Part shown: piece by piece, positions 10,214 through 51,400 of the stretch | How positions within the stretch are numbered: position 1 is the first letter of the stretch | How the letters are laid out: each line of letters begins with the position of its first letter | Assembly (NCBI GenBank): GCA_023396915.1 | Contig: JAEWUV010000001.1 | Span: forward strand, 21,206-85,205 | Length of the DNA: 64,000 nucleotides | From: Candidatus Parcubacteria bacterium | GTDB lineage: Bacteria; Patescibacteriota; Microgenomatia; UBA12405 | Direction of reading: 5' to 3' | The notes under the pieces: model-generated | Told to the model about the DNA's origin: nothing | What the model saw: only the letters and a program-made list of their open reading frames with translations | The model's database searches: none | Made by a program: the position numbers and the translations under genes

Positions 10214-11554
10214 ATGGATTTAGATCGTCTTTGGAAAAATACTCAAGAAGAACTTAAAATTGTCATGGCTCCGGCTGTTTACCAAACATTTGTCAGTAAA
10301 ACCCAACTTATTAAATTAGAAAATAATCTTGCCATTCTAGCCTGTCCTAATTCCTATTTAGTAGATATCAACAAAAAACGCCATTATCAAACTTTTAAAC
10401 TAGCCCTAGATAACCAAACCAAAACAGATAATCATATTGAATTTACTATCCAGCAAACAGAAAAACAAAACACCTCAATAGACTCCTCTCCTTTATTTGA
10501 ATATTCTAAACAAAAAAACACTTTTCAGTCTGGTCTCCACCCAAAATACACTTTCGACACTCTTATTGTTGGTAATAGTAATAATTTTGCCTATGCTGCC
10601 GCCCAAGGTATTATCAAAAACCCCGGTCTGTCTTACAACCCTTTCTTTATTTGGGGTGGGGTAGGAGTCGGCAAAACCCATTTAATGCAAGCTATTGGTC
10701 ATGAGCTTTTAAAAAATAATCCTGATTATAAAATTTCTTATTTCCCCGCAGAAACTTTTGGTAATGAACTCATCGCCGCCCTTAAAAGCAAAACTATGAA
10801 CAAATTCAAAGATAAATACCGCAATCTTGATTGTATTTTAGTCGACGATATTCAATTCATTGCCGGAAAAGAATATATCCAAGAAGAGTTTTTCCACACT
10901 TTCAACAGTCTTCATATGAATGGCAAACAAGTAATTCTCACCTCTGACCGTAAACCCAGTGAAATTGACCACCTTGAAGACCGATTAGTTTCTCGTTTTA
11001 TGGGTGGATTAACCGTTGATATTCAACTTCCAGATTATGAAATGCGAACCGCTATTATTAACCAAAAAATAGAAGAAAAAGGCTTAAAAATTACCCCAGA
11101 AGCCGCTTCTTATTTAGCTAATAATATTGAATCAAATATTCGTGAAATTGACGGCAAATTACAACAAATAATTATTCAATCAATCGCCAATAAAACAGAA
11201 GAAATTGATATTAATTTTATTCACCAGTTTTATAGTCCCCAATCAAACTTTGGTTTTAATGACTCCAACCAAAACATTAACCCTCGTCATATTATTTCTG
11301 TTTGTGCCAAATTTTTTAATATTAAAACAGGGGATTTATGTGGTAAAAGCCGAAAAAAAGAACTTGTCCAAGCCCGTCATATTACCGCTTATCTTTTACT
11401 TAATGAAATTAATCTTCCACTTGAAGAGGTTGGTCGCCTTCTTGGGGGCCGTGACCACACCAGTATTATGCATGCCCGAGACAAAATCCACACTGACTTA
11501 TCCACTAATTCACAAATTAGCAAAGTTATTAACCAAATTAAATCTGCTTTTTAA
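10214..11554 (+). CDS. dnaA: Chromosomal replication initiator DnaA.
   Basis: AAA+ Walker A GGVGVGKTHLMQAIG and DnaA domain IV (ARHITAYLL...GGRDHTSIMHA). Confidence 0.95.
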   Translation: MDLDRLWKNTQEELKIVMAPAVYQTFVSKTQLIKLENNLAILACPNSYLVDINKKRHYQTFKLALDNQTKTDNHIEFTIQQTEKQNTSIDSSPLFEYSKQKNTFQSGLHPKYTFDTLIVGNSNNFAYAAAQGIIKNPGLSYNPFFIWGGVGVGKTHLMQAIGHELLKNNPDYKISYFPAETFGNELIAALKSKTMNKFKDKYRNLDCILVDDIQFIAGKEYIQEEFFHTFNSLHMNGKQVILTSDRKPSEIDHLEDRLVSRFMGGLTVDIQLPDYEMRTAIINQKIEEKGLKITPEAASYLANNIESNIREIDGKLQQIIIQSIANKTEEIDINFIHQFYSPQSNFGFNDSNQNINPRHIISVCAKFFNIKTGDLCGKSRKKELVQARHITAYLLLNEINLPLEEVGRLLGGRDHTSIMHARDKIHTDLSTNSQISKVINQIKSAF

Positions 11555-11833
11555 TCAAAATTTACTTATCCACAAAATTATTAGTTTATCCACCAACTTA
11601 TCCACAAAATTATTTTTCTTTTTCCCCCGAAACTTACCCCAACTCCATATTTATTTTATAAGATAATTAAAATCAAAAATAACCAAAATATCGCCAAATT
11701 TAGTTTTTAAACACAATTAATTTTCAAAAAACATGATTCTTACCACTTTTTCATCAAACTATTCCACTTATAAACCCCACCTAATAACTAACACTACTAT
11801 TTTTTTTATTAATTTATATCTATAATAAAGCCA
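11555..11833. promoter_or_regulatory. Candidate oriC between dnaA and dnaN. Three same-orientation DnaA boxes (TTATCCACA 11566-11574, TTATCCACC 11586-11594, TTATCCACA 11598-11606) are followed by an AT-rich putative unwinding element (about 11640-11830).
   Basis: Perfect consensus 9-mers read directly. The downstream stretch is extremely AT-rich with A/T tracts. Confidence 0.7.
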
Positions 11834-12949
11834 ATGAATCTCTCTCTTCTCCAGGAGAACCTCAACCTTGCCCTGACCAACGTTTCCCGTTTTGTTTCTT
11901 CTAAAAATCAACTACCAGTATTAAATAATATTTTATTGTCTACCAATCAGGGTCGTCTCAAGTTATCTGCCACTAATTTAGAACTAAGTATTAATTATTG
12001 GATTGGTGCCAAAATAGAAGAAGAGGGGAGTATCACTATCCCCTCAAAAGAAATCACCGAATTTGTTTCTTATCTACCAACAGGAAAAATTGACTTAGAA
12101 CTCAAAAACAACCTTTTAACTCTTTCTTCTGAAAAAACCAATTCCGAATTCACCACTACTCCAGCTACAGATTTCCCCGAGTTTCCTAAAATAAATCCTG
12201 AAACCATATTCGAAATTGATTTTGATCTTTTTACTCAAAGCATTAATCAAATTTCTTTTTCCGCTGCTCTTGATGACACTCGGCCTATTTTAACTGGTGT
12301 TTTATGTATTTTTGAAAAAAAATCTGTCAAATTTATTGCCACTGACGGTTTCCGTCTTTCTTTAAAAGAAATCAAATTAGAAATACCACTTGATATTAAA
12401 AAAGAATCTTTGAGTTTTTTGATTCCCGCTAAATCCTTAATAGAAGTCACTAAACTGGCTAAAAACGATTCAAAAATTAAAATAGGTCTTACATCTGATG
12501 AACACCAAGTAATATTCATTCTAGACGATATAGAACTAGTTTCTCGACTTATAGAGGGTGAGTTTCCGGATTATAAAAAATTAATTCCTGAAAACTACTC
12601 TACCAAAGTCTTTATAAATAAAGATGAATTATTCCAATCAGTTAAACTTGCCTCTGTTTTTGCCAGAGAGTCAGCTAATGTAGTTAAAATCAATATTAAA
12701 AATAATAATTTAGAATTAACCGCTAACGCCCCTCAGGTTGGCCAAAATTTAATTAAAATAGACTCAAAAACTGAAGGAGAGAACTTAGAAGTTGCTTTTA
12801 ATTATAAATTCCTAATCGATTTTCTTAATGTTTGCAAAAGTAATGAGATTCTAATTGAATTAAATGAGAGTCTCAGTCCTGTTTTTTTTCACGACCAATC
12901 CGACCCTTCCTTTACTCATATAATAATGCCAGTTCGTTTACAAGACTAA
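11834..12949 (+). CDS. dnaN: DNA polymerase III beta sliding clamp.
   Basis: MNLSLLQENLNLALTNVSRFVSS... beta-clamp N-terminus, about 370 aa, downstream of dnaA. Confidence 0.9.
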   Translation: MNLSLLQENLNLALTNVSRFVSSKNQLPVLNNILLSTNQGRLKLSATNLELSINYWIGAKIEEEGSITIPSKEITEFVSYLPTGKIDLELKNNLLTLSSEKTNSEFTTTPATDFPEFPKINPETIFEIDFDLFTQSINQISFSAALDDTRPILTGVLCIFEKKSVKFIATDGFRLSLKEIKLEIPLDIKKESLSFLIPAKSLIEVTKLAKNDSKIKIGLTSDEHQVIFILDDIELVSRLIEGEFPDYKKLIPENYSTKVFINKDELFQSVKLASVFARESANVVKINIKNNNLELTANAPQVGQNLIKIDSKTEGENLEVAFNYKFLIDFLNVCKSNEILIELNESLSPVFFHDQSDPSFTHIIMPVRLQD

Positions 12950-14688
12950 TTACTTGTCTCCACTGCATTTTCATCCCAGAATTGTGCTCCCTGAAAATAA
13001 CCTGGCCCAAAAACTTGTTGATTAGCAAGGAATAAGGACCCTGCTATAATTGCAATCAAAATTCCAGCCGACACTGCTACTGCCGCTTTTACTTTAAACC
13101 CTCCAATAGAAGAAAGTGCTCCCCCTAAACCATTAACTCCCTTCAAAAATCCACCTCCAAGCCTCGTAATTCCATTTCCCAACCCTTTTCTAATCCCTGG
13201 CCCTAATCTACTCCCTAAGTCTCCCAAAGATTTTTTCAAAAAACCACCTGTTGTTGCCGACAAGTTCTTTAATCCATTTGAAATATTTCCCATTAATCCC
13301 AATCTCATACCCCCTCCATTTGCCATACCAGCATAAACCCTCCCCATCGCATCACCAAGACTGTTCCCAGTAAACATTTTTATCGACCTTTCTATATTTT
13401 GATTTTGTTGGCTCCCAATTTTTCTTTGTCCGCCCATAAACCGGTACATATTTACTTTTGTTTCCCCAAAGAGAGCCCTTTTTCTTTGAATTCGCTCCAG
13501 TGCTCCTTTGACTTTCTCATCTTTTCTTAAAACCGCATTTACTCTGTCAAAAGCATCTAAATTAGAATCAGCTGGAATTTTTAAACCACCCAATACTACA
13601 TCTGCTTTTTCCGACTTTTCCAATATATCTCTTGTTTCTTTAGGAGATATATTTACATATCCCGCCGTTACATTAAAATTATCAACGGCAATTTTAGCTT
13701 TACCGGAAGGGTCTTTACTTAATATTGAATTTTCTTGATTTTTAATTTCATTGTCTAAATTAAGCACTTGACTAGATAATTTCTTTTTTACCCTTACAGC
13801 TTGTTTTTGCTCTTCGGTTATTTTCCCTCCATTTTCTTTTTTAACTTTTTCTACAAACCTTTCAGTCAAATAATTATCGACTGCCTCACGATGCTCAGAT
13901 GCCCATTTTTCTAACTCTAATGTTATCGCTTTAATTTTTACCTTATATTCCAATTGAGATATTTCTCCTTTAGCCACAGCTCTGGTTAAATCATTTATTT
14001 TTTCTTCATTACTCTTAATTTCTGACCCATCTATAATTCTTTCCATTTCAGTTTCAATTCTGCTTATTGTTTCCTTATCTACCTCACTCTTCCCGGATTC
14101 TTGAGCCAATTTTCTGCTTAAATCTTGAATTTTCCCCTTCACTAATTTCACATCTTCTTTAACTTTTTTATCAACAACTTCTTCCCTTACTACTGTCCCA
14201 TCTTCAGCCTTACTTTTATCTTCTGGTTTTTCCTCTATAACAACCCCTTCCTCCGCTTTAATTTTTTCACTTTTAAGTTTAGTTTGAGTCTCAATAAATC
14301 TTCTTATATTTTCATCAGCTAAACTTGGTTTTTTATCTAAAATATCTTGAATTTCTTTTAAAACAGCCTCACTACTATTATCATTTTTGGCTTGTTTTTC
14401 ATCAAACTCTTTTAATAATTCATCTAGTTTTTGCTTACTAATTTGCTCATCACCAATCTTTTTTTCCGCATCTGCTTTTCTTTCTAGACTATTGATTGCT
14501 TCGTCAACTTTGTCAGATATAACCCCTTTAACTAATTCATCGAGAGATTTTTTAAACTCACCATTTGGGTCTAACTCTCCTCCTAATTCTTTTAACTGTC
14601 GCAAATAAATTAAACCATCATCAAAAGAAATTACTTTTATACTATTCAAAAAAACAATTTGTCCTTCTCTGTCATTTGGTAACGCCAT
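12946..14688 (-). CDS. Hypothetical 580-aa protein: long coiled-coil N-terminal two-thirds, a Gly-rich (GxxG repeat) region and a C-terminal TM helix. Last gene of the VirB4 operon.
   Basis: E/K-rich heptad-like sequence, then GGGMRLGLMGNISNGLKN...GLGNGITRLGGGFLKGVNGLGGALSSIGG, then AAVAVSAGILIAIIAGSLFL. No recognisable catalytic motif. Confidence 0.4.
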   Translation of the reverse strand: MALPNDREGQIVFLNSIKVISFDDGLIYLRQLKELGGELDPNGEFKKSLDELVKGVISDKVDEAINSLERKADAEKKIGDEQISKQKLDELLKEFDEKQAKNDNSSEAVLKEIQDILDKKPSLADENIRRFIETQTKLKSEKIKAEEGVVIEEKPEDKSKAEDGTVVREEVVDKKVKEDVKLVKGKIQDLSRKLAQESGKSEVDKETISRIETEMERIIDGSEIKSNEEKINDLTRAVAKGEISQLEYKVKIKAITLELEKWASEHREAVDNYLTERFVEKVKKENGGKITEEQKQAVRVKKKLSSQVLNLDNEIKNQENSILSKDPSGKAKIAVDNFNVTAGYVNISPKETRDILEKSEKADVVLGGLKIPADSNLDAFDRVNAVLRKDEKVKGALERIQRKRALFGETKVNMYRFMGGQRKIGSQQNQNIERSIKMFTGNSLGDAMGRVYAGMANGGGMRLGLMGNISNGLKNLSATTGGFLKKSLGDLGSRLGPGIRKGLGNGITRLGGGFLKGVNGLGGALSSIGGFKVKAAVAVSAGILIAIIAGSLFLANQQVFGPGYFQGAQFWDENAVETSN

Positions 14689-14721
14689 TTACTAAATTAT
14701 AGCAACTAATTACTACGCAAA

Positions 14722-17007
14722 TTAAATTATTCCACTATCTAGTAAATCGTCAGGAGTAGGTTCGTTGCTGTTTGTTTTATTCTCAAACAAAGGCGTCGGT
14801 TTTTTTGCTAATTGTGGCGGTTGGGGAATATTGGTCTCTTCTGTTTTTACAAAAATCGGTTTTTGTTTTTGTTCTGGTTCTAGTACCTCCATTTTAGGTG
14901 GTACAAATCTGTCTTGTTTTTCTTGACTATCCAATCTAATCTCTCCTGATAAATTAGGCTTTTTAACCTCAGCTTTTTCTAACTCATCAATCTTTTTTTG
15001 AAGTATATCTTCTACTTCATTTTTTTGAACCTCTTTACTTTCCTCTGAACTTTCACTTTTTGGAGTTTCAGTCAGAGGCTGATTAACCACTGGCTGAGGA
15101 GCTGGAATTTCAGCTTTTGGTTGAGGAACTGGAGTCTCAGTCTTTGGCTGAGGAGTTGGAGTTTTTTCAAGTGTTTCCAATTTTCTTTTTCTCAAAACCT
15201 CTTCCGGGTCAGAAGTAATTAATTGATGTTCTTCCTCTGAAGCAATAACTTCTACTGCTACATGGTTCTGTCCAGCAAAAAAGAGACCTTGGCCTTTATC
15301 AGCGGTTAATAATAATTGTTTTTCTCCTTCACTTAAATAAAATACCTCACCCACCTGATCAATTGCCGCCGCGTGTTGTTTAAGTAAAATCTGAATCGAA
15401 CTATTAGTTACAATTTCTTTTCCGTAAGTACTCTTTAAAAAATCATTAACATCCTGAGTAATTGTAGTCACACCCAAATAATATTTTCTACCTCTTTTAA
15501 CTACCCCTCTTAAAAACTGAGCCGAATCTTCGTATTGCATCATATACCAAGCTTCATCTACCACTAAAATCCTTTTCTTTAATGTCTTTTTAACTATGGT
15601 CCAAATATAGTCCAAAATAATATGCATCGCTACTGGCCTCAAAGTTTCTTCTAGATTTTTTATCCCAAACACCACAAATTGATTGGTTAAATTAACTGTA
15701 GTTTTTTGATTAAAAATACCCGCAAACGACCCTTTAATATATTTTTCCATCCTAGCAGCTATCATTTGGGCTTTTTCTTCCTCTCTTCCTATTAAAGCTT
15801 TATAAACATCCTCAATCAAAGGTGGCTCTTTATTTTGGGTTTCTGGGTCTGGGGTTATCCCTTTTGCTTTATAAGCATCCATCAAAGCCTTATCTAAAAT
15901 AGACTCTTCCATTGGATCTAATGCCCCCAACATTACCTTCATTAATTTATGGACCGAAAGAGTTTTACTGTTCAAAGCATTCTCTCCTTCCTCTTCTACC
16001 AAAGACAAATCCATTGGGTTTATTTTCGACTCTTCATTGTAGCCAAAAGCAATATATTGCCCTCCGGCCGCATCGGCCAAGTCCTTATATTCGTTTTCAG
16101 GATCTATTACAATTACTTCTGTTCCAAACATCAAAGATCGCAATACTTCCAACTTAATCATATAAGACTTTCCTACGCCTGAGGTAGCAAAAACCACTGA
16201 GTTGTAGTTCGGCATGGAAAATCGGTCAAAAATTATTAACGATCCATTATGGGCATTAATCCCATACATTACTCCCTTATCGTCAGACAAATCAGAAGAT
16301 ACAAATGGAAAAGTTGTTGCCAACGAAGTGGTGTCCATATTTCTGGTTATTCCCAATCTGTCACTATTAGCCGGTAAACAAGTTATAAAACCATCTTCCA
16401 TCTGCAAAGTTGCTCTTTTACTCACTACCAACAAAGACCCTAATGCCGCCTCTAAATTTTTATTAATCCTATCCAAATCCTCTTTAGAATCTGCTGAAAT
16501 ATTTATATAAAGCCCAAACTGAAAAAACCTTTCTTCTCCTTTTACTAAATCTGCTTGTAAATTCAAAGCGTCTTCAAGCTTTGCTTGTGTTGCCGGATTT
16601 ACCAATCGACCACGTTGGATATCAGTACTTAATTCCGCCTCCATTTCTGTAATTTTGCGTCGTAAATCATCTAAAATCGCCTTGCCATCAGTTGGATAAA
16701 TATACATCGAGATATTCAGTGTCCAATCAAAATTAATCAAAGAAGACAGCCAATTCATCCCGACAAACCTTGGATAACCGGATACAAATAAGGTTCGAAA
16801 ATATTTATCACCAATTCTGACATGGTTAAAATCAACTTCCAAAGATGATGGGGCAATTATATCTTTAATCGAAACTAATCCATCGGAAAAATCTCTTTTT
16901 TTAGTATTATCAACAACTCCAGATTCCTCTGTTTTTTCCTTAGAATTACCCTTGTTTTCCACAGCCACAGTTTTTGGTTTTCTAATTATATTTTTCAATA
17001 AATCCAT
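14722..17007 (-). CDS. virB4: VirB4/TrsE/PrgJ-family type IV secretion ATPase (C-terminal 761-aa portion) with a P/Q/K/E-rich disordered tail.
   Basis: IAPSSLEVDFNHVRIGDKYFRTLFVSGYPRFVGMNWL is the CagE_TrbE_VirB N-region. Walker A is FATSGVGKS and Walker B is ILVVDEAWYMM. The tail has PTPQPKTETPVPQPKAEIPAPQP repeats. Confidence 0.85.
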   Translation of the reverse strand: MDLLKNIIRKPKTVAVENKGNSKEKTEESGVVDNTKKRDFSDGLVSIKDIIAPSSLEVDFNHVRIGDKYFRTLFVSGYPRFVGMNWLSSLINFDWTLNISMYIYPTDGKAILDDLRRKITEMEAELSTDIQRGRLVNPATQAKLEDALNLQADLVKGEERFFQFGLYINISADSKEDLDRINKNLEAALGSLLVVSKRATLQMEDGFITCLPANSDRLGITRNMDTTSLATTFPFVSSDLSDDKGVMYGINAHNGSLIIFDRFSMPNYNSVVFATSGVGKSYMIKLEVLRSLMFGTEVIVIDPENEYKDLADAAGGQYIAFGYNEESKINPMDLSLVEEEGENALNSKTLSVHKLMKVMLGALDPMEESILDKALMDAYKAKGITPDPETQNKEPPLIEDVYKALIGREEEKAQMIAARMEKYIKGSFAGIFNQKTTVNLTNQFVVFGIKNLEETLRPVAMHIILDYIWTIVKKTLKKRILVVDEAWYMMQYEDSAQFLRGVVKRGRKYYLGVTTITQDVNDFLKSTYGKEIVTNSSIQILLKQHAAAIDQVGEVFYLSEGEKQLLLTADKGQGLFFAGQNHVAVEVIASEEEHQLITSDPEEVLRKRKLETLEKTPTPQPKTETPVPQPKAEIPAPQPVVNQPLTETPKSESSEESKEVQKNEVEDILQKKIDELEKAEVKKPNLSGEIRLDSQEKQDRFVPPKMEVLEPEQKQKPIFVKTEETNIPQPPQLAKKPTPLFENKTNSNEPTPDDLLDSGII

Positions 17008-17009
17008 AG

Positions 17010-17708
17010 TTATTTGGTTGTGACCATTGGGCTGTAATAATTAACCTCTTTAAGTTTTTGGTTATCCGCTACTTCCGGGTTATATATTTTATAAAATAAT
17101 TCAGTTAACTCTTTGTTTTCCAAAAGTGAAACCTCCAAACCTAATCTCGAGAATAACCTTATCAAATGATCTTTTTTCGGTTCTAAACTCGCTTTCGCCT
17201 TTTCTAGAATATAACTTTTAGGATAAGGCAAACCAATATTTCTATCTTTTTTTATCAATCCTTTTAAACTTTGTTTACCCATACTCTTAATTCCCAATTC
17301 TGCCGAAGAAAACTTGACCACCACATAAAACGATTTAGATAAAACATCATTTCTTTTAACTATATCTTCGATAAACTTTCTATATTTTTTAATTCTCTCT
17401 TTCAACATTTTATTCTCCTGTTTTTCTTCCGCTTCATTCAACCTTTTCATATAAGACCCAATGTCTTTAGTGTCAGATTTAATTATTATTTGAACAGGAA
17501 AGTTTAAAGAATTTAAAATTCCACCGTAAGCCATTATCAACGCCGATTGTTCCCTCTCTGACAATAAATCAAAATTTACCGAAGAAACTCTTAATATTGA
17601 AACCGCTGAACCGTCTTTCAAAATAACTACATCCTCAATAATATCCTCAATCGGCAAATGCTCTTGAGTTGTACCTTTAATAGCTATTTTAAGAGGATCG
17701 TTTGGCAT
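17010..17708 (-). CDS. VirB4-family N-terminal domain fragment (232 aa). Probably the 5' part of the same virB4 gene, separated by a frameshift.
   Basis: LPIEDIIEDVVILKDGSAVSILRVSSVNFDLLSEREQSALIMAYGGILNSLNFPVQIII resembles the extreme N-terminus of Gram-positive VirB4 (PrgJ/TcpF-like). Its stop (17010-17012) lies 2 nt from the next ATG, which is in a different frame. Confidence 0.55.
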   Translation of the reverse strand: MPNDPLKIAIKGTTQEHLPIEDIIEDVVILKDGSAVSILRVSSVNFDLLSEREQSALIMAYGGILNSLNFPVQIIIKSDTKDIGSYMKRLNEAEEKQENKMLKERIKKYRKFIEDIVKRNDVLSKSFYVVVKFSSAELGIKSMGKQSLKGLIKKDRNIGLPYPKSYILEKAKASLEPKKDHLIRLFSRLGLEVSLLENKELTELFYKIYNPEVADNQKLKEVNYYSPMVTTK

Positions 17709-17722
17709 ATATTAATAATAAA

Positions 17723-18661
17723 CTAATTGTGAGCTATTATTCTAACTGGGTCAACAATTTCACCTTTCAAATCAATATTAACTCTATCAAAACCATAACC
17801 TTCCTTTTCGGCAATCAATAGATACCTTCCATTAGCCAGTGGAGTCGATATTTTAAACTGACCCAAAGCATTAGTTTTGATAACCCTAGTTGGATTCCCA
17901 TGCATGTCTTGAATTTCTATAATTACTCCATCAACTATCTTCCCTTCACTATCTGTCGCCATCCCTACAATTACATTGGAAATATCTGGTCTATTCGGCA
18001 TTGGAATACTGCCAAAAACTGCCTTTCCTGTGGCTTCCAATTTTTCTTTCTTTAAATTTAAATCAACTGTTTTCCTCTCTTGAATATTAATTTCCTCTAT
18101 TTTTTCTTCCGGTATCACTTCTGTTACTTTTCTGATTTCATCAGAAACAGGTTCAATTACTCTTTCTTTAACACTGTTTTGTTTTGGCTTTATTTCAATT
18201 GCCTCATTTTTTTTATTTTTAGCGATTTTAATTTTAAAATTACTCCCAACATTAGAAGTATTTGTTTGATCTATCTTTTTCTTAAAAACAATATCAGCGT
18301 TTTTATTTTCGTACAATTGAGCCGTTTCTTCCTCTTTTTTTTGAGGGCTACTTAATTCCAACCAGTCTTCATTTTTCTTCTTGTAAGTATATATTGTCGG
18401 AGCATAAATCGACTTTAGAAAAGCTATAGCCCATGTTTCCAAGGGCCTATCTTCAAAAGGAATAAAAGCCAACGCTAATCCTAAACCGCCGGTAGCAAAC
18501 ATTAACGGCCACTTAAATATCGCCAATAATTTCGTTTTATATATTAATATCGCAATTATTATGCCTCCGGCAGCTTTTGCAAACTGCTTTAACGTCATAT
18601 CTCCTACCAATTTAAATTCATAGGATGATATTTGTTGTGGAATCGGGTGTTGCATTTCCAT
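17723..18661 (-). CDS. PrgI-family (VirB3-like) T4SS membrane protein fused to a C-terminal carboxypeptidase-regulatory-like (CarboxypepD_reg) beta-sandwich domain.
   Basis: N-terminus QISSYEFKLVGDMTLKQFAKAAGGIIIAILIY...FIPFEDRPLETWAIAFLKSIYAPTIYTYKK matches PrgI family (PF12666) features. C-terminus GKIVDGVIIEIQDMHGNPTRVIKTNALGQFKISTPLANGRYLLIAEKEGYG matches the carboxypeptidase regulatory-like domain. Confidence 0.6.
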   Translation of the reverse strand: MEMQHPIPQQISSYEFKLVGDMTLKQFAKAAGGIIIAILIYKTKLLAIFKWPLMFATGGLGLALAFIPFEDRPLETWAIAFLKSIYAPTIYTYKKKNEDWLELSSPQKKEEETAQLYENKNADIVFKKKIDQTNTSNVGSNFKIKIAKNKKNEAIEIKPKQNSVKERVIEPVSDEIRKVTEVIPEEKIEEINIQERKTVDLNLKKEKLEATGKAVFGSIPMPNRPDISNVIVGMATDSEGKIVDGVIIEIQDMHGNPTRVIKTNALGQFKISTPLANGRYLLIAEKEGYGFDRVNIDLKGEIVDPVRIIAHN

Positions 18662-18670
18662 TACTAAATT

Positions 18671-19285
18671 CTACCGTAAAATCTCCGCCAGTTTCCAGTT
18701 TGATTTTTCATAATCACCTGGGTTATACCAATATGTTTGCCAACCCATTTGTTTAGGTATTTCTAAATTTTCCTGTTTATTATCTATGAACAAGATTTCA
18801 CTACTTTCAACCTCGGCTCTTTTTTGGGCAATTTCATAAATTTTTCTATCCGGCTTTCTGCATTTCTCTATTGACGAATCCGCAATCACATCCCAATTCA
18901 TGTTTGGAATCAATCCTTTTTCTTTAATCAAATTCAACATCCCTTCATACATATTTGTTAACAAACCCACTTTATATTTATTTTTAACACTATTTACTAT
19001 TTGCCAAATTCCTTCGTTTCTAACAAAAAAATTATTTACCATATCATCACCAATGGAATAATTATTCGGCAAATTAATCCCAAATCTATCTCTCATTATT
19101 AAGGGAAAATCTCTCAATTTTTTACCTTTTTCTAAATCTTTTTCAAAAATATCAAAAAAATCATCAAATTTTTGTTGTTGAGAATCCTTTAACCCTAGTT
19201 TTTTTAATAATACTTTCCAACCATTATCATCGTCACTCAAATCTTTTATCAATACCCCGCCAACATCAAAATAAACAAATTTCAT
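18671..19285 (-). CDS. HAD-superfamily hydrolase.
   Basis: FDVGGVL (DxG motif I), LLTN, KPD, FIDN motifs. Confidence 0.65.
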   Translation of the reverse strand: MKFVYFDVGGVLIKDLSDDDNGWKVLLKKLGLKDSQQQKFDDFFDIFEKDLEKGKKLRDFPLIMRDRFGINLPNNYSIGDDMVNNFFVRNEGIWQIVNSVKNKYKVGLLTNMYEGMLNLIKEKGLIPNMNWDVIADSSIEKCRKPDRKIYEIAQKRAEVESSEILFIDNKQENLEIPKQMGWQTYWYNPGDYEKSNWKLAEILR

Positions 19286-19313
19286 ATTTAATTCTACCTT
19301 AATCTATTTTTTA

Positions 19314-19365
19314 AGCCCTCCCTTTTTCAAGGGAGGGTGCCCGATAGGGCGGGTGGGTTTAATTC
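19314..19365. repeat. Composite GC-hairpin element, copy D (agCCCTCCCtttttcaaGGGAGGGtgCCCGatagggCGGGtgggtttaattc), immediately upstream of the 5'-3' exonuclease start.
   Basis: Shares hairpin-1 architecture and the gggtgggtttaatt tail with copy C at 25641. Confidence 0.65.
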
Positions 19366-27283: not shown

Positions 27284-27760
27284 ATGGCTCAACCCGTCGG
27301 TTATTCCAAAAAAGTTTTAGAACATTTCAGAAATCCACATAATTTTGGGGTTATTAAAAATGCCACTACTGTTGGCCAAGTAGGGAACCCCGCTTGTGGT
27401 GATGTTATGAAACTTTATTTAAAAATTGACAAAAATAAACAAGGTCAAGATTTTATTAAGGATGTTAAATTTGAAACCATGGGTTGTGCTGCCGCCATTG
27501 CCACCAGTAGTGTTGTTACCGATTTAGCTTTTAGTAAGACCATAGAAGATGCTCTAAAGTTGGACAATAAAGATGTTATCGAGGCGCTCGAATATCTTCC
27601 CGATATCAAGATTCATTGTTCTCTTTTAGCCATCGATGCTCTAAACGAAGCTATTTTTAATTATTACCAACAAATTAAACATTCCATTTCAGAGTCTCTT
27701 CAAAAGAAACACGATAGAATTACTGTTTGTCAAGCTAGGCTCCATGACCAACATCGATAA
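27284..27760 (+). CDS. iscU: Fe-S cluster assembly scaffold IscU/NifU-like, with a C-terminal extension.
   Basis: Three conserved Cys: GNPACGDVMKL, GCAAAIATSS, IHCSLLA. Confidence 0.88.
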   Translation: MAQPVGYSKKVLEHFRNPHNFGVIKNATTVGQVGNPACGDVMKLYLKIDKNKQGQDFIKDVKFETMGCAAAIATSSVVTDLAFSKTIEDALKLDNKDVIEALEYLPDIKIHCSLLAIDALNEAIFNYYQQIKHSISESLQKKHDRITVCQARLHDQHR

Positions 27761-28817
27761 ATTTTCTTGCCCAGATTGCCATCCTCAAAAGAAATCTAAC
27801 CTATTGTTTTTGGTTATTTTTATAGTTCTAGTTTTTTTCTTTTTTATCTTCAATCAATTTAATCTTCTTCCGTTACTTAGTCTTGATTTTCAAAGTTCTC
27901 TCCCTTTATTTTTTCTTCTGGGTGTTTTAGCCAGCCTTTCCAGTTGTAGCGCTATTATTGGCGGCCTATTGCTTTCAATTTCTAAAAATTGGTTGGATTT
28001 TAAATCACATTTATTTTTCAATTTATCCAGAATTATCACTTTTGTCCTTCTAGGTGGATTACTTGGACTAATTGGTTCTTTTATTAATATTTCTTCCTCA
28101 GTTTTTCCAATCATAATTACTACTATTTCCTTAATTATGATTTACTCTTCTTTACCACTTTTAGGGATTAACCTTCCAAAAATTTCTTTTCTCCCCAAAA
28201 AGTTTCTTAACAAAACATTTTCTCAAAATCTTTCACCAATTATTTTTGGTATTTTAACCTTTCTTCTCCCTTGTGGTTTTACTTTTACCGCCCAAAGTTC
28301 TGCTTTAATTTCAGCCAATCCGCTTAGAGGTTCTCTTATTCTTCTCTTCTTTGTTCTGGGTACTACCCCCAGTCTTTTATTAATCGGTTTTTTTAGTTCC
28401 AAACTTTTCAAAAACCCTGCTCTTTCTAAAAAATTTTCTCTTTTAGCTGGCTTTCTTATATTATTTTTCGCCTTATCCAACATTTTTATTCAGGCCAAAA
28501 ATCTATTCCCATCAAAAAACAGTTCATCGGTTGTCATCTCCGATCAAAAACAAATTATCAATATGACCGTGACCAACTCTGCTTATTCCCCCAGTTATTT
28601 TGAAGTCAAAACCAACACTCCAATTGTCTGGCAAATTACCCCAAAAGGTATTACTAGCTGTACCACCACTTTAGTCTCACCTTTAATTTTGGATAAACCA
28701 ATTAATCTTTCACCTTTTCAAAGTACAACCGTTGAATTTACTATCAAAAAGCCAGGAACATATAGTTTTTTCTGTTCTATGGGGATGGTTACTGGAATTA
28801 TCAAAGCAGTCGACTGA
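27744..28817 (+). CDS. Membrane protein with an N-terminal CxxC, a TauE/DsbD_2-like TM domain and a C-terminal cupredoxin-like domain. Putative metal handling.
   Basis: FSCPDCHP, LLGGLLGLIGS...LTFLLPCGFTF TM motifs. C-terminus TTVEFTIKKPGTYSFFCSMGM resembles cupredoxin-like domains, although His ligands are not evident. Confidence 0.45.
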   Translation: MTNIDKFSCPDCHPQKKSNLLFLVIFIVLVFFFFIFNQFNLLPLLSLDFQSSLPLFFLLGVLASLSSCSAIIGGLLLSISKNWLDFKSHLFFNLSRIITFVLLGGLLGLIGSFINISSSVFPIIITTISLIMIYSSLPLLGINLPKISFLPKKFLNKTFSQNLSPIIFGILTFLLPCGFTFTAQSSALISANPLRGSLILLFFVLGTTPSLLLIGFFSSKLFKNPALSKKFSLLAGFLILFFALSNIFIQAKNLFPSKNSSSVVISDQKQIINMTVTNSAYSPSYFEVKTNTPIVWQITPKGITSCTTTLVSPLILDKPINLSPFQSTTVEFTIKKPGTYSFFCSMGMVTGIIKAVD

Positions 28818-44675: not shown

Positions 44676-44969
44676 CTAATTTTTATTTTTCCCCGCCCAC
44701 AAATTCAACCCACCAATCACCATCGCCGGCATATAAATTACCCACGCTTCCAAACTCATCACCATAAAAGCTATTTCCAAAACCAGCCACAAAATCCCTC
44801 CCAAAACCTCTTTCTTCCACGAAATTATTGTCACTATTATCAATACAAAACTCGGTATCAAATGCATCATCAACGCCACCAACCATTGTTCTTCTCCAAC
44901 CACATCCACCACAAACAAACTAATAAACAAAATAAAAACTATCGATAATATCCTAGTTATTTTCTTCAT
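44676..44969 (-). CDS. Small membrane protein (97 aa, 3 TM). Last gene of the island operon.
   Basis: Hydrophobic helices. Overlaps the fic stop region. Confidence 0.4.
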
Positions 44970-45819
44970 AATAATAAGAATAATCTATTCCTTTCATAAA
45001 TATTTCCCGACTATTAATTTTATTAGTTAAAGCCTTTTTTAATAATTTTTTTATTTCACTATTATCTTTCGGGCTTTGTATCATCGCTTTTAGATAATCA
45101 TTTTTGCCTATTTTGCTCCAGTCAACGCATTTTTTTAGCTGTTTTTTAAAAATCAAATCCAACCAGATCCGGGTAGTTCTACCGTTACCTTCCATAAATG
45201 GATGAGCCAGATTCATCTCCACATATTTATCGGTAATTTGGTTAAAAGTATCTTGAGGCATTTGCTCAATCTGTTTTAGAGTATTGTCTAAAAATTGAGC
45301 CATGGCAAATTGAAACCCGCCTTTTGATATATTTTTTTGCCTGATTTGCCCGGCAAAATTATATAATCCACCAAACAAATAAGCATGGATCTGTTGCAAA
45401 CCTTTAATTGTACCGATTTCTATTTCATCTATTAAATTACTTTCAAACAAAGCATAAGCTTTTTTCTTGCTTTGCCCATCAATAGTATTGTCACTATAAG
45501 TAAACCAATCAAGAAACGACATAGATTTTTTACTCGGAATTGCTTTTACCACCTCAACAATGTCATCTTGTGAAAAACAATCAGTAGCGTATTTTTTCCC
45601 ATCTGATGCGACTAATTTCAGTTGCCTACATTTTGTAGTCAACTGATTTCCTTCTTTTTTTAATCGTGTTTTCAACACACTCCAATATTTTCGTGGATTC
45701 GCACTTTCCGTCAAAGCAGCCACGATATCAAGAACTGAAAACCACCACTTATTTTTCTCTTCATCCCAAACCGCCCGCACTTCTTTATCATCAAAAAACC
45801 GAATTGATATTTTATCCAT
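44953..45819 (-). CDS. Fic/DOC-family protein with an N-terminal BRO-N/DinD-like domain.
   Basis: Fic motif [12 protein letters not shown] (HPFx[DE]GNGR). N-terminus [34 protein letters not shown] resembles BRO-N/RhuM-N. Confidence 0.8.
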
Positions 45820-45845
45820 AATTATTCTTTAACCTATCTTAACAT

Positions 45846-46607
45846 TTATTTAATCTTTTCAACTGCCTTCACATAATTGCAGTAATCACAATCAGCACTA
45901 GATTCAGGAATTTCTTTGCTATTCAAACACTTATAAATATCCTTAATCGTTTGCTCAATCCAATCAGTCTTGCCAGTATAAGGTAGTAATTTAATATCAA
46001 ATTCCAATTTTCCATCAAAAGCCACTCTATCAGTTTTCCCGTTACAATAGACAAAATAGCCAGTATCCGACACCTCAAAACCATTTTTTCTAAATAGCCA
46101 CTGATACACTTCCATCTGTCTTTTGTATCCATCTTGCCATTCCGCATCCAAGTTTACTTCACTTTCTTTTGATGTCGATTTGTAATCTACAATTATCAAT
46201 TCATTTTTTGAATTAATCCAAACATCATCGACTGCTCCAGTAATTAACAAATTAGTTTCTGGATCCAAATAGGTAATTCCTTTAAAATTTTCTCGCCATT
46301 CATCCATTTTTGGATGTTCAAAAGGTACTGCATCCAATCCATAAGCTTTCATCAATGGGTGAGTTGTATGTTTATTTCTATGAATATCAAATTCTTTTTT
46401 AAGCAGCTTATCAACCGCTGAATTTAATGAAAAGGGGAATCCTGGTGGTTGGGCAATTCCAAGCACTCGATCCAAATAAAAACACCTTGGACATTTTATA
46501 AACAAATCAATCTTCGACCGACTTATCTTAAACGCTTGTCGGCCTGTGGCCGAGTTTTTTCCTTCATACAATCCCAGTTGTCTGTTTGGCTTATAGTATT
46601 GCGACAT
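45846..46607 (-). CDS. PD-(D/E)xK nuclease with a 4-Cys (Fe-S) cluster, Cas4/AddB-nuclease-like.
   Basis: N-terminal CPRCFYL, core IIVDYKS (D...(D/E)xK), C-terminal CDYCNY. This is the Cas4-type Cx(n)CxxC arrangement. Confidence 0.65.
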   Translation of the reverse strand: MSQYYKPNRQLGLYEGKNSATGRQAFKISRSKIDLFIKCPRCFYLDRVLGIAQPPGFPFSLNSAVDKLLKKEFDIHRNKHTTHPLMKAYGLDAVPFEHPKMDEWRENFKGITYLDPETNLLITGAVDDVWINSKNELIIVDYKSTSKESEVNLDAEWQDGYKRQMEVYQWLFRKNGFEVSDTGYFVYCNGKTDRVAFDGKLEFDIKLLPYTGKTDWIEQTIKDIYKCLNSKEIPESSADCDYCNYVKAVEKIK

Positions 46608-46662
46608 AAGCTATTTTACTCTAAGAACAAATCGTATCAAAAAATAGTTGTTAAAGATTACT

Positions 46663-47541
46663 CTAAGCAATCCTAAAAATTGCAGTATCCGAAGGCTGGA
46701 ACTCACTGTGTTTAATGTATTTCTTTAATGAAAAAAAATCTTCATTATTTGATGACAATATTTTTGGTGTAATTGTACCTTCTTTGATATGTACATCAAT
46801 ATTTTTATCTTTGCAAAATTTTATTACGTAATTTACCATAGAATTATAAAACTCTTTGACACCAACTTGATTAGAAATCATACTATTATAATTCCATCTA
46901 CCAAACACAATTTTATCCACAAATGAAATCGACTCCAAGATAGTCTTAATGTCTTGCTTTACTATATTTGATGTTGGATATGGTTCCATACTAACCCATG
47001 TTTTTAACCCAGATTTATGTAGCTCTTTTAGAGACTCTATTCTCTTTTTAATCGGAGCAGCTCCAGGTTCAAATTTCTTCCTATATTCTTCTGATAACGA
47101 AACTATTGTTGAACCATATTCGTTTAAAGAATTATATTTACTAGCGTTAATTAATTCTTTTGGATATATCCCTTTTGTTATTATTGTTGACCTTATACCA
47201 TAAGTATTTAATTTTTCTAGTATTTTCAACGTCAATTTAATAACTTCTAGTTGTTTATACATAAATGGATCAGATGAAAAACACAAAAACACACAGTGGA
47301 TTTTATTTTTTAGTCTTGGAAGTTCTTTATCCAATAATTCCATTGCATTTCCAACAATTTTTGGGGATATCCACTCATTATAACTTTTAACGACTCCACA
47401 TCTTTTTTTCATCATGTATGCATAACAGGGAAATTTACATCCATGAGAACAACCTTCGATATGATTCAATCCATAATCCGCATATTCGACATTACTTTTG
47501 TATAGAAGTGATTTACGATTTATTTTAGGTAAACTTTTCAC
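46663..47541 (-). CDS. Three-Cys-motif (CSHGCKFPC = Cx3Cx3C) radical-SAM-like protein.
   Basis: GCSHGCKFPCYAY near the N-terminus. Paired with the RlmJ/TcmP-like gene 21 nt upstream. Confidence 0.45.
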   Translation of the reverse strand: MKSLPKINRKSLLYKSNVEYADYGLNHIEGCSHGCKFPCYAYMMKKRCGVVKSYNEWISPKIVGNAMELLDKELPRLKNKIHCVFLCFSSDPFMYKQLEVIKLTLKILEKLNTYGIRSTIITKGIYPKELINASKYNSLNEYGSTIVSLSEEYRKKFEPGAAPIKKRIESLKELHKSGLKTWVSMEPYPTSNIVKQDIKTILESISFVDKIVFGRWNYNSMISNQVGVKEFYNSMVNYVIKFCKDKNIDVHIKEGTITPKILSSNNEDFFSLKKYIKHSEFQPSDTAIFRIA

Positions 47542-47562
47542 TTATTTAGTTTAGCAGTATTT

Positions 47563-48486
47563 TTACTTTGGAGTATAGTCTTCTTTATCAAACATATACA
47601 TTTGTCCTGTGTATGTGGATTTATCTTTATTTTTAAATATATGGTCTATTATTTTTTTTGCACTTGGACATCTTGATGCAAATAAAAGAAAATAGGAGGT
47701 TTCATTTTTATTCGGTCTTAACATTTGGTATACAGATAATTGATTTAATTTTGAATCAGCAAATATTTCTTTAATAATCATCAACATTAAATCTTTGTCT
47801 TTTTTACTAAAACTATCAGTTAATGATTCAATCTCATGAAGCGATTTTACAGAATTTAATAGTTTTTCTATTTTTTCTTTATTTCCATTGTTACTAATTA
47901 ATTTCTTTACATAAGCCAAAACTCTCGATGTTCCACAAATATAGTTTAATATCAAATCATTAGGGCTTTTCTCTCCACGGCTTACTATTTGTTTTATTGT
48001 TTCTTTCTTTATTTCTTTTGGTCCCCACGGATCAATAAAAAATAAAACTGGTCTATATTTTATTTTTTCAATAATATTTCCAATTTCTATATTAATATCA
48101 CCCAGTATAAGATCAATATTAACAAATTTTCTGTAAGGTTCACAAAAATTCTCCAATTCTTTAACTGATTTTTTATTTTTTTCAACAAAAATACAATTCA
48201 GCTTTACAGTTCCAGAGTGTTTCAAATAAAGAGATTTTGCATATTCTAAGGCAATTAATGGAGATCCATTTATCGAATCCATTATTCCATTATTGTGATA
48301 CATTCCTCTCCCAGCATAACAGTCTATATAATAAGCAGTTTTTGCCCATTGTTTTTGATGATTTAGATATTGAGCAAAAATAATAGTAGCCCATTTATTA
48401 AGATATTCTTTTAAAATTTCCAATTTTCTTTTAGTATGGGGTCTATTTGTTATATCCCAATAATTACTTTTATTCATAAAACACAA
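47563..48486 (-). CDS. RlmJ-like / TcmP-like protein (putative N6-adenine methyltransferase fold; 'three-Cys-motif partner protein').
   Basis: YIDCYAGRGMY, GSPLIALEYAK and LFFIDPWGPKE parallel RlmJ motifs (YLDTHAGAGRY, GSPLIA, LIDPPYE). Its start is 1 nt after the upstream RM-like gene stop. Confidence 0.5.
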   Translation of the reverse strand: MCFMNKSNYWDITNRPHTKRKLEILKEYLNKWATIIFAQYLNHQKQWAKTAYYIDCYAGRGMYHNNGIMDSINGSPLIALEYAKSLYLKHSGTVKLNCIFVEKNKKSVKELENFCEPYRKFVNIDLILGDINIEIGNIIEKIKYRPVLFFIDPWGPKEIKKETIKQIVSRGEKSPNDLILNYICGTSRVLAYVKKLISNNGNKEKIEKLLNSVKSLHEIESLTDSFSKKDKDLMLMIIKEIFADSKLNQLSVYQMLRPNKNETSYFLLFASRCPSAKKIIDHIFKNKDKSTYTGQMYMFDKEDYTPK

Positions 48487-48487
48487 T

Positions 48488-51400
48488 CTATTTTACATTT
48501 TCTTCTGTAATTTTAATTTCTTCCTCAATTTTTAAATATACTTTATCAATTCTAATTTGAATTTCTTTTGTTAATTTTAATACTGTCACCACCCTACAAT
48601 AATGTCGAATATCTTCATCTGATAAAGTTTTTTCCACCCTATCTTTAAGCCACTTATCTAATACTTGATATCCGCCAATATAATAATTCCAAATCTCAGG
48701 AGTAACATCATCAAAATATTGAGAATCATTTATATAAACACGATTGTTTTCTAGATCGTATTTTCTTTTGTTAACTTTTCCTTCTCCCTGACCAAAAAAT
48801 CTTGTAGAAGGGTTATCTAATTCTGATGAATTTAATAAATGTAGATTTATTAAATCTTCACCTAAAGAAGATAGTAATTGAAAAGTTTCTAAGTTTTCTG
48901 TAAAAGGAATCCTAGGAAAATCTATTTTTAAAAATTCTTTGTATTTCTCTCGATAGATATTTGAATAAAGAATCGCATAAATATAATAAAAAATTGCCTC
49001 ATTTGTTTGAATAAAATTACCTGATATTTTTGATGCGAATGATGGAACTTGTTGGATAAAATTTGGTAACTTTGACCAGTTGTAATTTGACGACCTAATT
49101 TTTGATTCCGACAACTCTTGTTGAGAACTGTAAATATAAAGTGGAAATGTATATGCCGAATCTTGAGCATTATCTAAATAATGAAAATCGGTTATGGTAT
49201 TTGTTATACCAAAATAATTTAAACTTAACTGACGGTTTCTTTTAGCAGATATTAATATCAAATTGTTCCGCATAAAAATATGTTTTGTAACTTCATTGCG
49301 TACTCTCCATATAGCAGATGGATGATTGAATATCCAACGATTATCAAATGGTCTATAACTGTAGTTTGAATAATATTTATTAATATTCTCAAGATTTTTT
49401 AATTTCAATTTTGTTTCAGGAATTCGTTCAGAATAAATCTTACTTAATTTAAAAGTATTTTTAATAAATTCATCATCACCAACACTGTTTATAAAACTAT
49501 TAATTTTTGTTTCGAGTTTATGTTTATCAAAATCAATCACAAAGTTATCATTCGCGGTTAGAATACCAGTACTATAAATATTAAAAATATCCGTTAAAGG
49601 TATAAACTTTTGGTATTTTTCATTACCTTCTTCATTTCTTGGAACTAAGAAATAATAAGGTTTAGATGGAATTAATTTTTGCCATTTTGTTGTTGTAATA
49701 TCATTTGATTCAAGCCATTTATATTTATCTTCACGTAAACCCCATTGATCACAATAGAATATTTGTTTAGTTTTAACAGGTGTCTTACATAATAAAACAA
49801 TAGATACTCCAGTTTGAATATCAAAAACATTTTCGTCTTTTTTACCTTCAGGTGTCTTTTCCTTTTTAAGGATACTACCGTGTAAATTAACAACATATAT
49901 TTCATTAAAAGTATTTAACATGGAATATCTCATACCACGGAAAGTTGGATTATCAAGCCAAGCATGATTAGTAATAAATCCTAAAATTCCCTGTTTATTT
50001 TGTTCAATCTTCCATTGAGAAAATCTGAAAAATTTTACATAATCATCTTGCAACCAATCTTTTTTTTCATTTAATTTTTCTCCCTCAATCTGGCGATATT
50101 CATTAATTTCCCCCAGTATCCAATCTCCTTTATTTGTAGAAACAGCTGAATAGGGTGGATTACCCATAATAACCATTACCTTTTTATTTTTTTTAACATC
50201 ATTAGCTTGACGAGATTCTTCTGATAAATCAGAAAATAATGGAAGATCCATGTGTGGAAGATTATTCAAATCAAGCGTATTAGTTAAAAAAAGATTAAAT
50301 CGTTCATACTGCCCTAATTTATATTTGTGTTCATCAAAAATCAAAGATGCTTTAATGTGTCCTAAAACATAAGGTGACATCATTAATTCAAAAGCAAAAA
50401 AATGAGGGATAATATGATTTTTTATCAAATTATTAATTCCTCCATCACCATATCTGTTTTTATATTCATCTATGGCTACTTTAATTGCTTCAATCGGAAA
50501 GGTTAATGTACCAGCAGCAGGATCAAGTAAAGTTACTGAATTACTAGCTAATCCATCCGGTCTTTTAAATTTTTTTTGAAGAATTTTATGAACTGAATTT
50601 ACTATATATTTAACTACTGGCTCCGGTGTGTAATATACTCCTCTTTTTGCCCTCTCTTTTGGATCATACTCAGCAAGAAAAGTTTCATAAAAATGGATAA
50701 TAGGATCATTACCCTTACCATTTAAATAATAATTATCAACAATCTTTGTAACATCCGTGTTTTTAAGTAATTCGGCAATATCGTCAATAATCCATTCCAT
50801 ATTTTTAGGTAAATCGTTAGATGAAATGAAACGAAATATGCTTCTTAAAACTCCAATTGTAGATGGAATAGTTTTAAAAGCATTTAAACGATTAAAATCT
50901 GATGATGATCGAAGACGAGCTGCGAATAAACCAAAAGTAATGGTTTGAGAAAACAAATTTGCAAAATCATCAAGATTTAAAGAGGATATTAAATATTCTT
51001 TGAACAGTTTATAAATTCCCTCAAGTGTTTGAGTTCCAGTTTGTGTTTCCTCTTTTAACTCCTCAATAATGCAGTTTTCTTTAAGAAAACTAGTTCTTTT
51101 AGCAAGTTCTATTGCTAAAGTTTTAGCTGTATTGATTTTTGGAGTAGAAAAAGAGAAAAATTCAGCTAATAACTTTTGGAGATATAACTCATTTTCTACC
51201 GGCGGAACAATCCCAAGCTGATTAAGGATAACAGGACGACCTATCATTACTTTATCTATTTGTTCTCCGTTGCGGTAAAGTCTAAATTCGAGAAAATTTG
51301 TCAAAATCAAATTAGGGAAAGTTTTAAGGTATCTTTGTAGTTGTTCTGTTTGTTCTATAGCGTCGAGGTTTTCAATATTTGGTTCTTTTGCTTCTATATA

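Follow-up and report, generated by a model that had tools for sequence, protein, structure and literature searches.

What does a membrane protein of a type IV secretion system (T4SS) contribute once it lacks the enzyme domain that its relatives carry? This question is raised by a locus next to dnaN in a 64,000-nucleotide stretch of the genome of a Candidatus Parcubacteria bacterium (contig JAEWUV010000001.1, positions 21,206 to 85,205; hereafter the window, with positions counted from its first letter). The analysis covered this 64-kb window of a genome of about 0.9 Mb, of which about 840 kb lies outside it. The module consists of four open reading frames (ORFs) on the minus strand, spaced by 14, 2 and 33 nt and reading towards dnaN:

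17723-18661, minus strand: PrgI/VirB3-like membrane protein, 312 amino acids (aa) (PF12666, PF13620)
17010-17708, minus strand: 232-aa TrsD-like protein, homologous to the VirB4 N-domain and encoded on its own (NF041427, NF045975, PF26593)
14722-17007, minus strand: VirB4 ATPase, 761 aa, MPF-FATA/CD1110 type (NF045971, PF19044, 4AG5)
12946-14688, minus strand: tail-anchored protein of 580 aa (p580), starting 33 nt after virB4

A preliminary description of the window had placed a T4SS module at 12946-18661, and its ORFs proved real, with these coordinates and this orientation. The convergence with dnaN was found as described too, the stop codons of dnaN (TAA, 12947-12949) and of the p580 gene (TAG, read as CTA, 12946-12948) lying within a shared stretch of 4 nt (12946-12949). 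The same description had counted VirB3-like and VirB4 proteins as the only T4SS components, thereby overlooking the TrsD-like ORF. The best answer to the question, with a probability of roughly 0.7, is that this locus encodes the core of a relaxase-less chromosomal T4SS of the Patescibacteria type, in which p580 is a retained, non-catalytic membrane subunit that represents the body of a family of hydrolases.

The nature of the core follows from its VirB4 protein. This protein matched NF045971, the CD1110 VirB4 family, with 391.1 bits over model positions 179-733 (curated cutoff 325) and PF19044 with 97 bits (cutoff 25.8), and its residues 238-598 matched the solved VirB4 ATPase domain of PDB entry 4AG5 (E 8.5e-47). 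The Walker A (ATSGVGKS) and Walker B (ILVVDE, residue 480) motifs were both present, and the protein was 95% identical to its orthologue in the related locus L005. Judged by these profile matches, VirB4 is an intact MPF-FATA-type ATPase; hence, the VirB4 call passed the profile check and the Gram-positive type formerly assigned to the core holds, the CD1110 family (MPF-FATA) being the best curated model. The match begins at position 179 of NF045971, the N-domain being encoded apart, by the gene for the TrsD-like protein. The latter matched NF045975 (VirB4_plasma; model positions 103-287, E 3.9e-11) and NF041427 (TrsD; 42.8 bits, E 4.8e-11), in the last case without reaching the curated cutoff of 200, and carried a precomputed assignment to PF26593 (TraC-like). 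It is thus clearly a homologue of the VirB4 N-domain by its profile matches, yet not a TrsD equivalog. Its stop codon (TAA) is followed, after 2 nt, by the ATG of virB4, and trsD was a separate ORF in 77 of the related loci.

The third component, the PrgI-like protein, scored 24.2 bits (E 5e-5) against PF12666, below the Pfam cutoff of 27. Among its orthologues, 61 of the 63 matched this family, the best with an E value of 2.7e-12, and the position of the gene upstream of trsD-virB4 was constant, as seen in about 70 loci. The earlier PrgI/VirB3 call is therefore upheld for the family and not for the window protein taken alone, and at the family level the protein is assigned, from these profiles, as a VirB3-type membrane partner. 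It begins with a hairpin at about aa 27-69 (hydrophobic segments at approximately 27-42 and 51-69), followed by a K/E-rich linker and a beta-sandwich at aa 231-293 that matched PF13620 (CarboxypepD_reg; E 6e-7). The latter domain was matched in 57 of the 63 orthologues, and near-invariant residues were present in both domains. PrgI-like proteins of these Patescibacteria (L005-L086) measure 280-460 aa and not about 100 aa. No mention of a fusion of PrgI with CarboxypepD_reg was found in the literature searched, and the conserved beta-sandwich on the PrgI protein of these lineages is part of the incremental novelty of this locus.

Related loci were collected with VirB4, the best 80 being compared; all of them came from Patescibacteria metagenome-assembled genomes (MAGs). 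They belonged to Candidatus Shapirobacteria, Woesebacteria and other Microgenomates, and then to Paceibacteria-like MAGs. Because of this order of relatives, the organism is, as far as VirB4 tells, a Shapirobacteria-like member of the Microgenomatia, and the comparison with Saccharibacteria made in the preliminary description has to be replaced. The VirB4 tail (aa 585-761; 14722-15252), a P/E/K/Q-rich stretch of 177 aa of low complexity, is specific to this Shapirobacteria-like group, VirB4 being 740-912 aa long there and about 600-700 aa elsewhere. In some relatives the virB4 frame was broken, near the 3' end in L005, L010 and L052 and near the 5' end in L024 and L039; either frameshifts or errors of assembly may account for this. 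Many contigs of Patescibacteria MAGs (L007, L009, L010, L012, L013 and others) bear the record titles 'uncultured Gammaproteobacteria' or 'uncultured Pseudomonadales'; these are placeholders or errors, as is evident from the presence of a T4SS of the candidate phyla radiation type beside dnaA/dnaN.

The protein encoded at the end of the module, p580, had no Pfam or NCBIfam match. Its first 430 residues are helical and charged; they are followed by a basic segment rich in Gly (aa 431-535; 27% Gly), a single C-terminal transmembrane (TM) helix (aa 536-556), and a tail of 24 aa that ends in the motif W-D-E-N-A-V-E-T; the Gly-rich, tail-anchored character attributed to it before was thus found again. 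The TM helix has Lys residues on its N-terminal side and acidic ones on its C-terminal side, which indicates an N-in/C-out topology, with aa 1-430 predicted to be cytoplasmic and the tail external. An AlphaFold2 model built on an alignment of 25 sequences was all-alpha with a mean confidence (predicted local distance difference test, pLDDT) of 67, the Gly-rich and TM part being of very low confidence; a model based on three sequences (pLDDT 38) was unusable. Only 25 relatives of p580 emerged when 1.84 billion representatives were searched exhaustively with a profile. The identical protein was present on 16 contigs from several samples, namely a single-scaffold metagenome assembly of 906,714 bp and 15 others. 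A profile of the family, searched against PDB sequences, gave matches confined to the hydrolase heads of the relatives.

In the related loci, virB4 is directly followed by a gene for a protein of 600-1170 aa with one to four TM segments, and several lines of comparison connect p580 to these proteins. First, composition-corrected BLASTP of p580 against the post-virB4 proteins retrieved those of L006 (2e-40), L007 (3e-20), L012 (3e-13) and L008 (7e-12), the last of which was linked in an all-versus-all BLASTP to the M23-bearing protein of L013 (2e-56) and the NlpC/P60-bearing protein of L010 (4e-27). Second, a phmmer search of the whole database with p580 retrieved P0003 at 1e-52. Third, in an iterated hidden Markov model search, p580 residues 97-557 aligned to the post-virB4 proteins. 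Finally, hhalign of the p580 family against M23-bearing proteins of about 1000 aa from distant Microgenomatia gave 99.7% probability (E 1e-26), with an alignment that spanned 410 non-catalytic columns. At the level of sequence, these alignments establish the homology of p580 with the post-virB4 proteins over the helical region, the Gly-rich segment and the TM helix.

In the relatives, the TM region is followed by an additional 200-400 aa that match peptidoglycan hydrolase families. M23 was matched in L013, L015, L017, L018 and L021 (E 1e-12 to 1e-14), NlpC/P60 in L010 (1.3e-8), and VanY in L020 (1e-10); matches to CwlO, RipC and LdcB were also found for these heads. Ten of the 25 global representatives carried C39_2, NlpC/P60, VanY or CHAP, and 38 matches to hydrolase families, 28 of them to M23, were obtained among 49 large TM proteins adjacent to T4SS genes. 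The position of the family is equally consistent: homologues of p580 always followed virB4 in the same orientation and with short gaps, and in genomes where the cluster is located upstream of dnaA an M23-bearing large TM protein still accompanied prgI-trsD-virB4. Judged by homology and gene position, p580 hence belongs, as a member without ectodomain, to a T4SS-linked family of membrane-anchored, predicted wall hydrolases, and the 'novel' coiled-coil protein of the preliminary description belongs to a family with hydrolase-bearing members. That different predicted catalytic heads occur on the same body among related members is part of the incremental novelty as well.

Many relatives (L007, L052, L015, L017, L018, L021 and L022) carry extra genes between the hydrolase-bearing gene and dnaN. 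One of them encodes an N-terminally anchored protein of about 300 aa, with Big_2 Ig-like domains in L007 (8140-9018) and L052 (12923-13813), and one or two further genes encode proteins of about 90-130 aa with an N-terminal TM segment. These are possible adhesin or pilin-like accessories, and none of them was found in the window.

In p580 such a head is absent. The protein gave no hydrolase match, only 24 residues follow its TM helix, and tblastn with the ectodomains of ten relatives revealed no remnant anywhere in the window; indeed, the overlap of the p580 gene with dnaN leaves no space for one. The condition is not confined to this genome either. The protein belongs to a short-tail clade that comprises P0001, P0002 (573 aa), P0004 (397 aa) and P0005 (519 aa), which share less than 50% identity pairwise, stop about 25 residues after the TM helix and end in a common motif (W-[DE]-x-[NT]-A-x-E-[ST]). 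All are encoded by complete ORFs in a HAD-PrgI-TrsD-VirB4-X-dnaN context, and in the P0004 locus dnaN abuts the short-tail gene likewise. The short-tail pair branched within hydrolase-bearing lineages in a VirB4 tree built by neighbour joining, indicating that head loss is derived. The short-tail P0004 and the head-bearing P0007 (731 aa) were 28% identical overall and had the same first 13 residues (MANQATAKKGEEF), which may point to recombination or to a signal conserved at the N-terminus.

Selection on the module was estimated by comparison with the L005 genome, using Nei-Gojobori ratios of nonsynonymous to synonymous substitution rates (dN/dS); dS was about 1 and thus near saturation, and the values are rough. 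Amino acid identities and dN/dS amounted to 97% and 0.017 for dnaA, 95% and 0.031 for dnaN, 91% and 0.036 for TrsD, 83% and 0.10 for PrgI, 66% and 0.28 for the HAD-family phosphatase gene upstream of the module (see below), and 52% and 0.27 for p580, next to the VirB4 identity of 95% given above. Within p580, dN/dS was 0.19-0.20 for the cytoplasmic part, 0.50 for the Gly-rich segment, and 0.71 for the TM helix plus tail. The overall value of 0.27 indicates that p580 is maintained by selection; it is under purifying selection while evolving roughly ten times faster than its partners.

Several points weigh against p580 being a retained subunit of this T4SS. The search for partners spanned 64 kb, and a VirB6 protein, a pilin, a coupling protein or a free hydrolase may be encoded in the other 840 kb or so. 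The cytoplasmic domain of p580 showed no sequence or structural match to a known T4SS subunit or PDB fold, and its association with VirB4, TrsD and PrgI is deduced from conserved adjacency and homology. The ectodomains of the relatives are hydrolases as predicted by profile matches, some of which were weak, namely those of L006 (C39_2, E 0.0016), L007 (NlpC/P60, E 0.006) and L080 (CHAP, E 0.056), and the 253-aa tail of L012 had no domain match at all. Upstream proteins of the Paceibacteria type have M23 in common with the family, not the body. Lastly, dN/dS reaches 0.5-0.7 in the Gly-rich segment, TM helix and tail of p580, rough as this value is at a dS of about 1, and p580 is 52% identical between genomes of which dnaA, dnaN and VirB4 are 95-97% identical; this low identity could also reflect relaxed constraint after loss of function.

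This last point leads to the alternative that survives best, although it is unlikely, namely that the module is a decaying remnant, the T4SS having become defunct after loss of the head and the accessory genes and p580 drifting towards a pseudogene. The preliminary description had considered a partial or degenerate system as well. It was right insofar as the head and the downstream accessory genes have been lost compared with close relatives, and neither VirB6 nor pilins were found in the window. The identity of p580 to L005, compared with 91-97% for its neighbours, and the elevated dN/dS in its C-terminal 150 residues would also suit decay. What speaks against it is that purifying selection acts on all four genes, none of which is disrupted: VirB4 retains its Walker motifs and its high identity to L005, TrsD and PrgI have low dN/dS values, and the ratio for p580 as a whole is clearly below 1. 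Moreover, four lineages that share less than 50% identity have all kept p580 as an intact ORF, with its tail motif conserved.

The position of the module next to dnaN brings in another alternative, that p580 is unrelated to the T4SS and is an origin-proximal coiled-coil membrane protein, involved in, for example, chromosome tethering or cell division. The features of this side of the locus are:

11834-12949, plus strand: dnaN, convergent with the module (context, outside the system)
11555-11833, no strand: dnaA-dnaN intergenic region with an oriC-like cluster of DnaA boxes (context)

To the left of dnaN come dnaA (10214-11554) and then, on the minus strand, rnpA, yidD, yidC and jag. The window contains four perfect TTATCCACA boxes, three of which are located around dnaA, at 10094 (upstream of dnaA), 11566 and 11598, and a box with one mismatch is present at 11586. 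The plus-strand GC skew was negative throughout the window, rising from -0.5 (left end) to about -0.1 (right end), without a sign change at dnaA/dnaN despite the DnaA boxes; either the skew minimum lies away from dnaA or the skew is dominated by a factor other than replication. The location of the module at the origin, as proposed before, hence agrees with the DnaA boxes and not with the GC skew. A tethering function would accord with the vicinity of dnaN and of the DnaA-box cluster, with the lack of similarity of p580 to described T4SS subunits, and with its helical and charged nature, which many cytoskeletal tethers share. It is nevertheless improbable, as the homologues invariably follow virB4, keep to prgI-trsD-virB4 also where the cluster lies upstream of dnaA, and carry predicted secreted wall-hydrolase domains that fit a trans-envelope machine and not a chromosome tether.

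The partners missing from the window suggest a further reading. None of the genes called in the 64 kb belonged to a Pfam family of relaxases, VirD4/coupling proteins, VirB6, VirB2/pilins or wall hydrolases, in line with the preliminary description, which had noted the lack of a relaxase, a coupling protein and VirB6. Similarly, 738 ORFs flanking the T4SS genes of relatives, including those for Big_2, small N-terminal-TM and 9-TM proteins, retrieved only housekeeping genes when compared with the window by phmmer. Candidates for the missing subunits did not hold. The 4-TM neighbours considered as VirB6 proteins were YidC-like, by their N-terminal sequence and their matches to the yidC gene of the window, and no Pfam match was obtained for those 9-TM neighbours that were scanned for the same role. 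Two small genes at 27890-28483, considered as VirB2 pilins, lie antisense inside an ORF for a 357-aa polytopic membrane protein. Public gene calls at 27744-28817 comprise these two small minus-strand genes (27890-28114 and 28223-28483), and the sequence supports the plus-strand 357-aa ORF, which ends in a C-terminal soluble domain; the small genes are probably a gene-calling error in the source record.

A role of p580 as VirB6 substitute, its basic Gly-rich segment and TM helix oligomerizing as a glycine-zipper pore, would explain the scarcity of VirB6 in Microgenomatia (PMC12102498) and its absence from the window. Relatives do have two to four predicted TM segments aligned to the Gly-rich segment, that region of L008 gave a weak match to the TrbL/VirB6 Pfam family (E 0.053), and it is the Gly-rich and TM part that was matched in the most distant members of the family. 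A VirB6 protein is polytopic and has five or more TM helices. The window p580 has a single clear TM helix and matched neither a TrbL/VirB6 nor a PrgH profile; the TrbL match of L008 was far below threshold and was seen once, and the Gly-rich/TM region combines the highest dN/dS of the protein with very low AlphaFold2 confidence. Such a pore is accordingly given little credence. Least of all is the cluster likely to be part of an integrated conjugative or mobilizable element, for although VirB4, PrgI and TrsD derive from monoderm conjugation machinery, no relaxase, coupling protein, integrase or repeats were found near the module in the 64 kb, its GC content equals that of its surroundings, its gene order is embedded in the rnpA-yidC-dnaA-dnaN core synteny in dozens of Microgenomatia genomes, as a synteny check proposed earlier brought out, and a tblastn search of 72,556 plasmids with p580 gave no match.

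The remaining features of the neighbourhood concern the expression of the module and the rest of the window:

18671-19285, minus strand: HAD-family phosphatase gene (PF00702, TIGR02247), 9 nt upstream of the PrgI-like gene
19286-19352, no strand: divergent gap of 67 bp between the HAD gene and a 5'-3' exonuclease gene, candidate promoter region

The position of the HAD gene is kept in the short-tail subclade (L005 and P0004 loci) and not in other relatives; it probably heads the transcription unit, whereas its membership in the T4SS is uncertain. The divergent gap is the sole sizeable one upstream of the module and contains a weak sigma-70-like site on the minus strand (19330-19301; 9 of 12 matches), although the promoter and terminator scans gave matches at the level of consensus only. 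Probably, (HAD)-PrgI/VirB3-TrsD-VirB4-p580 forms one transcription unit. Scans for tRNA genes and Rfam families found nothing in the window. Elsewhere, the region 44953-53163 has a GC content of 0.26-0.30, compared with about 0.34, and encodes a Fic/Bro-N, a radical SAM, a DUF2726 and a RhuM protein as well as a PD-(D/E)XK nuclease and a restriction-modification enzyme of Type ISP (1039 aa); it looks like a horizontally acquired defence island.

If p580 is indeed a retained subunit of the T4SS, the family as a whole may represent a wall-opening subunit of the VirB1/PrgK type, with N-in/C-out topology and a long intracellular domain, the body of which would have a structural role, placing the hydrolase head at the site of secretion. 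In the clade of the window, the headless body may then act as a scaffold at a VirB4/TrsD/PrgI membrane complex, wall cutting being either supplied by an enzyme encoded elsewhere or no longer needed. By analogy with Southlakia, the machine would serve the epibiotic lifestyle or host interaction and not conjugation; such a non-conjugative role, also raised in the preliminary description, is consistent with the literature (PMC12102498; PMC10633639).

The type of the core cluster, the absence of a relaxase and the origin-proximal location have been published already, and the identity of p580 is an incremental addition to them. Its interest lies in the fact that the Patescibacteria T4SS is among the few machines shown to be essential for epibiotic life. 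The short-tail clade offers a natural dissection of this machine, keeping the intracellular body and anchor under selection while dropping the enzyme, which argues for a separate function of the body in the machine. In addition, the occurrence of different heads on the same body in close relatives points to rapid adaptation at the cell-cell interface. A more far-reaching proposal, which has to be called speculative and is unlikely at present, holds that the post-virB4 protein is an unrecognized core subunit of the Microgenomatia T4SS, its body docking on VirB4/TrsD/PrgI and its exchangeable head aimed at the host wall and not at that of the bacterium itself. If so, the heads (M23, NlpC/P60, CHAP, C39-like, VanY or NAGPA by lineage) would track host wall chemistry, and the headless clade would have hosts that lack peptidoglycan or whose wall is opened otherwise, or would use the Gly-rich/TM segment as a conduit.

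Compared with known systems, the p580 family recalls several designs. CwlO, RipC, PcsB and EnvC are coiled-coil-plus-hydrolase proteins controlled by the FtsEX ATPase, in which the coiled coil lies outside the cell and binds to FtsX. The p580 family resembles them in combining a long helical region with an NlpC/P60, CHAP or M23 head and in having an ATPase neighbour, but has this region ahead of the TM helix, in a predicted cytoplasmic location, and no homology of the helical part was found. Concerning TrsD, a small separate ORF, homologous with the N-terminus of VirB4, directly precedes virB4, as in the split TrsD/TrsE pair (VirB4 N-domain plus VirB4) of pGO1/pSK41 (PMC12102498), the window protein being a distant relative of TrsD, as its bit score against the TrsD model indicates.

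The closest architectural counterpart of the family is PrgK of pCF10, a VirB1-like hydrolase of the DELTA class from a Gram-positive T4SS, with TraG of pIP501 and CwlT of ICEBs1, which are T4SS-encoded and membrane-anchored too. As reviewed recently (PMC12857230, 2025), the PrgK-type architecture comprises an intracellular domain, a TM helix and extracellular domains of LytM/CHAP type, and the p580 family has an alike order of an intracellular N-domain, one TM helix and extracellular LytM/M23 plus CHAP or NlpC/P60 types. This likeness is one of architecture, as the intracellular part had no similarity to plasmid proteins or PDB entries; the plasmid search with p580 revealed no link to plasmid proteins of the PrgK/TraG type. 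The family further differs from the PrgK class in that no SLT or muramidase domain was seen in it and that its head varies between close relatives. The window p580 has the anchor and the place in a T4SS gene cluster that mark the PrgK/TraG class, but no extracellular domain.

Finally, the module fits the Patescibacteria T4SS as delineated by Quinonero-Coronel et al. (2025; PMC12102498), who described a monophyletic VirB4 clade nested in MPF-FATA, with TrsD and PrgI encoded beside virB4, relaxases generally absent, and the cluster located next to dnaA/dnaN, especially in Microgenomatia and Paceibacteria. The window shares with these systems the chromosomal MPF-FATA virB4, the adjacent TrsD and PrgI/VirB3 genes, the lack of a relaxase and the dnaA/dnaN location; it differs in lacking a VirB2-like pilin array, VirB6 and a coupling protein within the 64 kb. 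A homologous cluster is essential for epibiotic growth of the cultured Saccharibacterium Southlakia epibionticum (SEML1_0006-0019; Wang et al. 2023, PMC10633639), where virB4 is followed by genes for a peptidase and a lysozyme homologue, both of them essential; unlike these proteins, the post-virB4 protein of the window has no enzyme domain. According to the former study (PMC12102498), VirB3 is rarely associated with virB4 in Microgenomatia and VirB1 is not virB4-associated outside Paceibacteria. In the loci compared here, in contrast, PrgI adjoins virB4 in nearly all cases and a predicted hydrolase-bearing protein does so in most.

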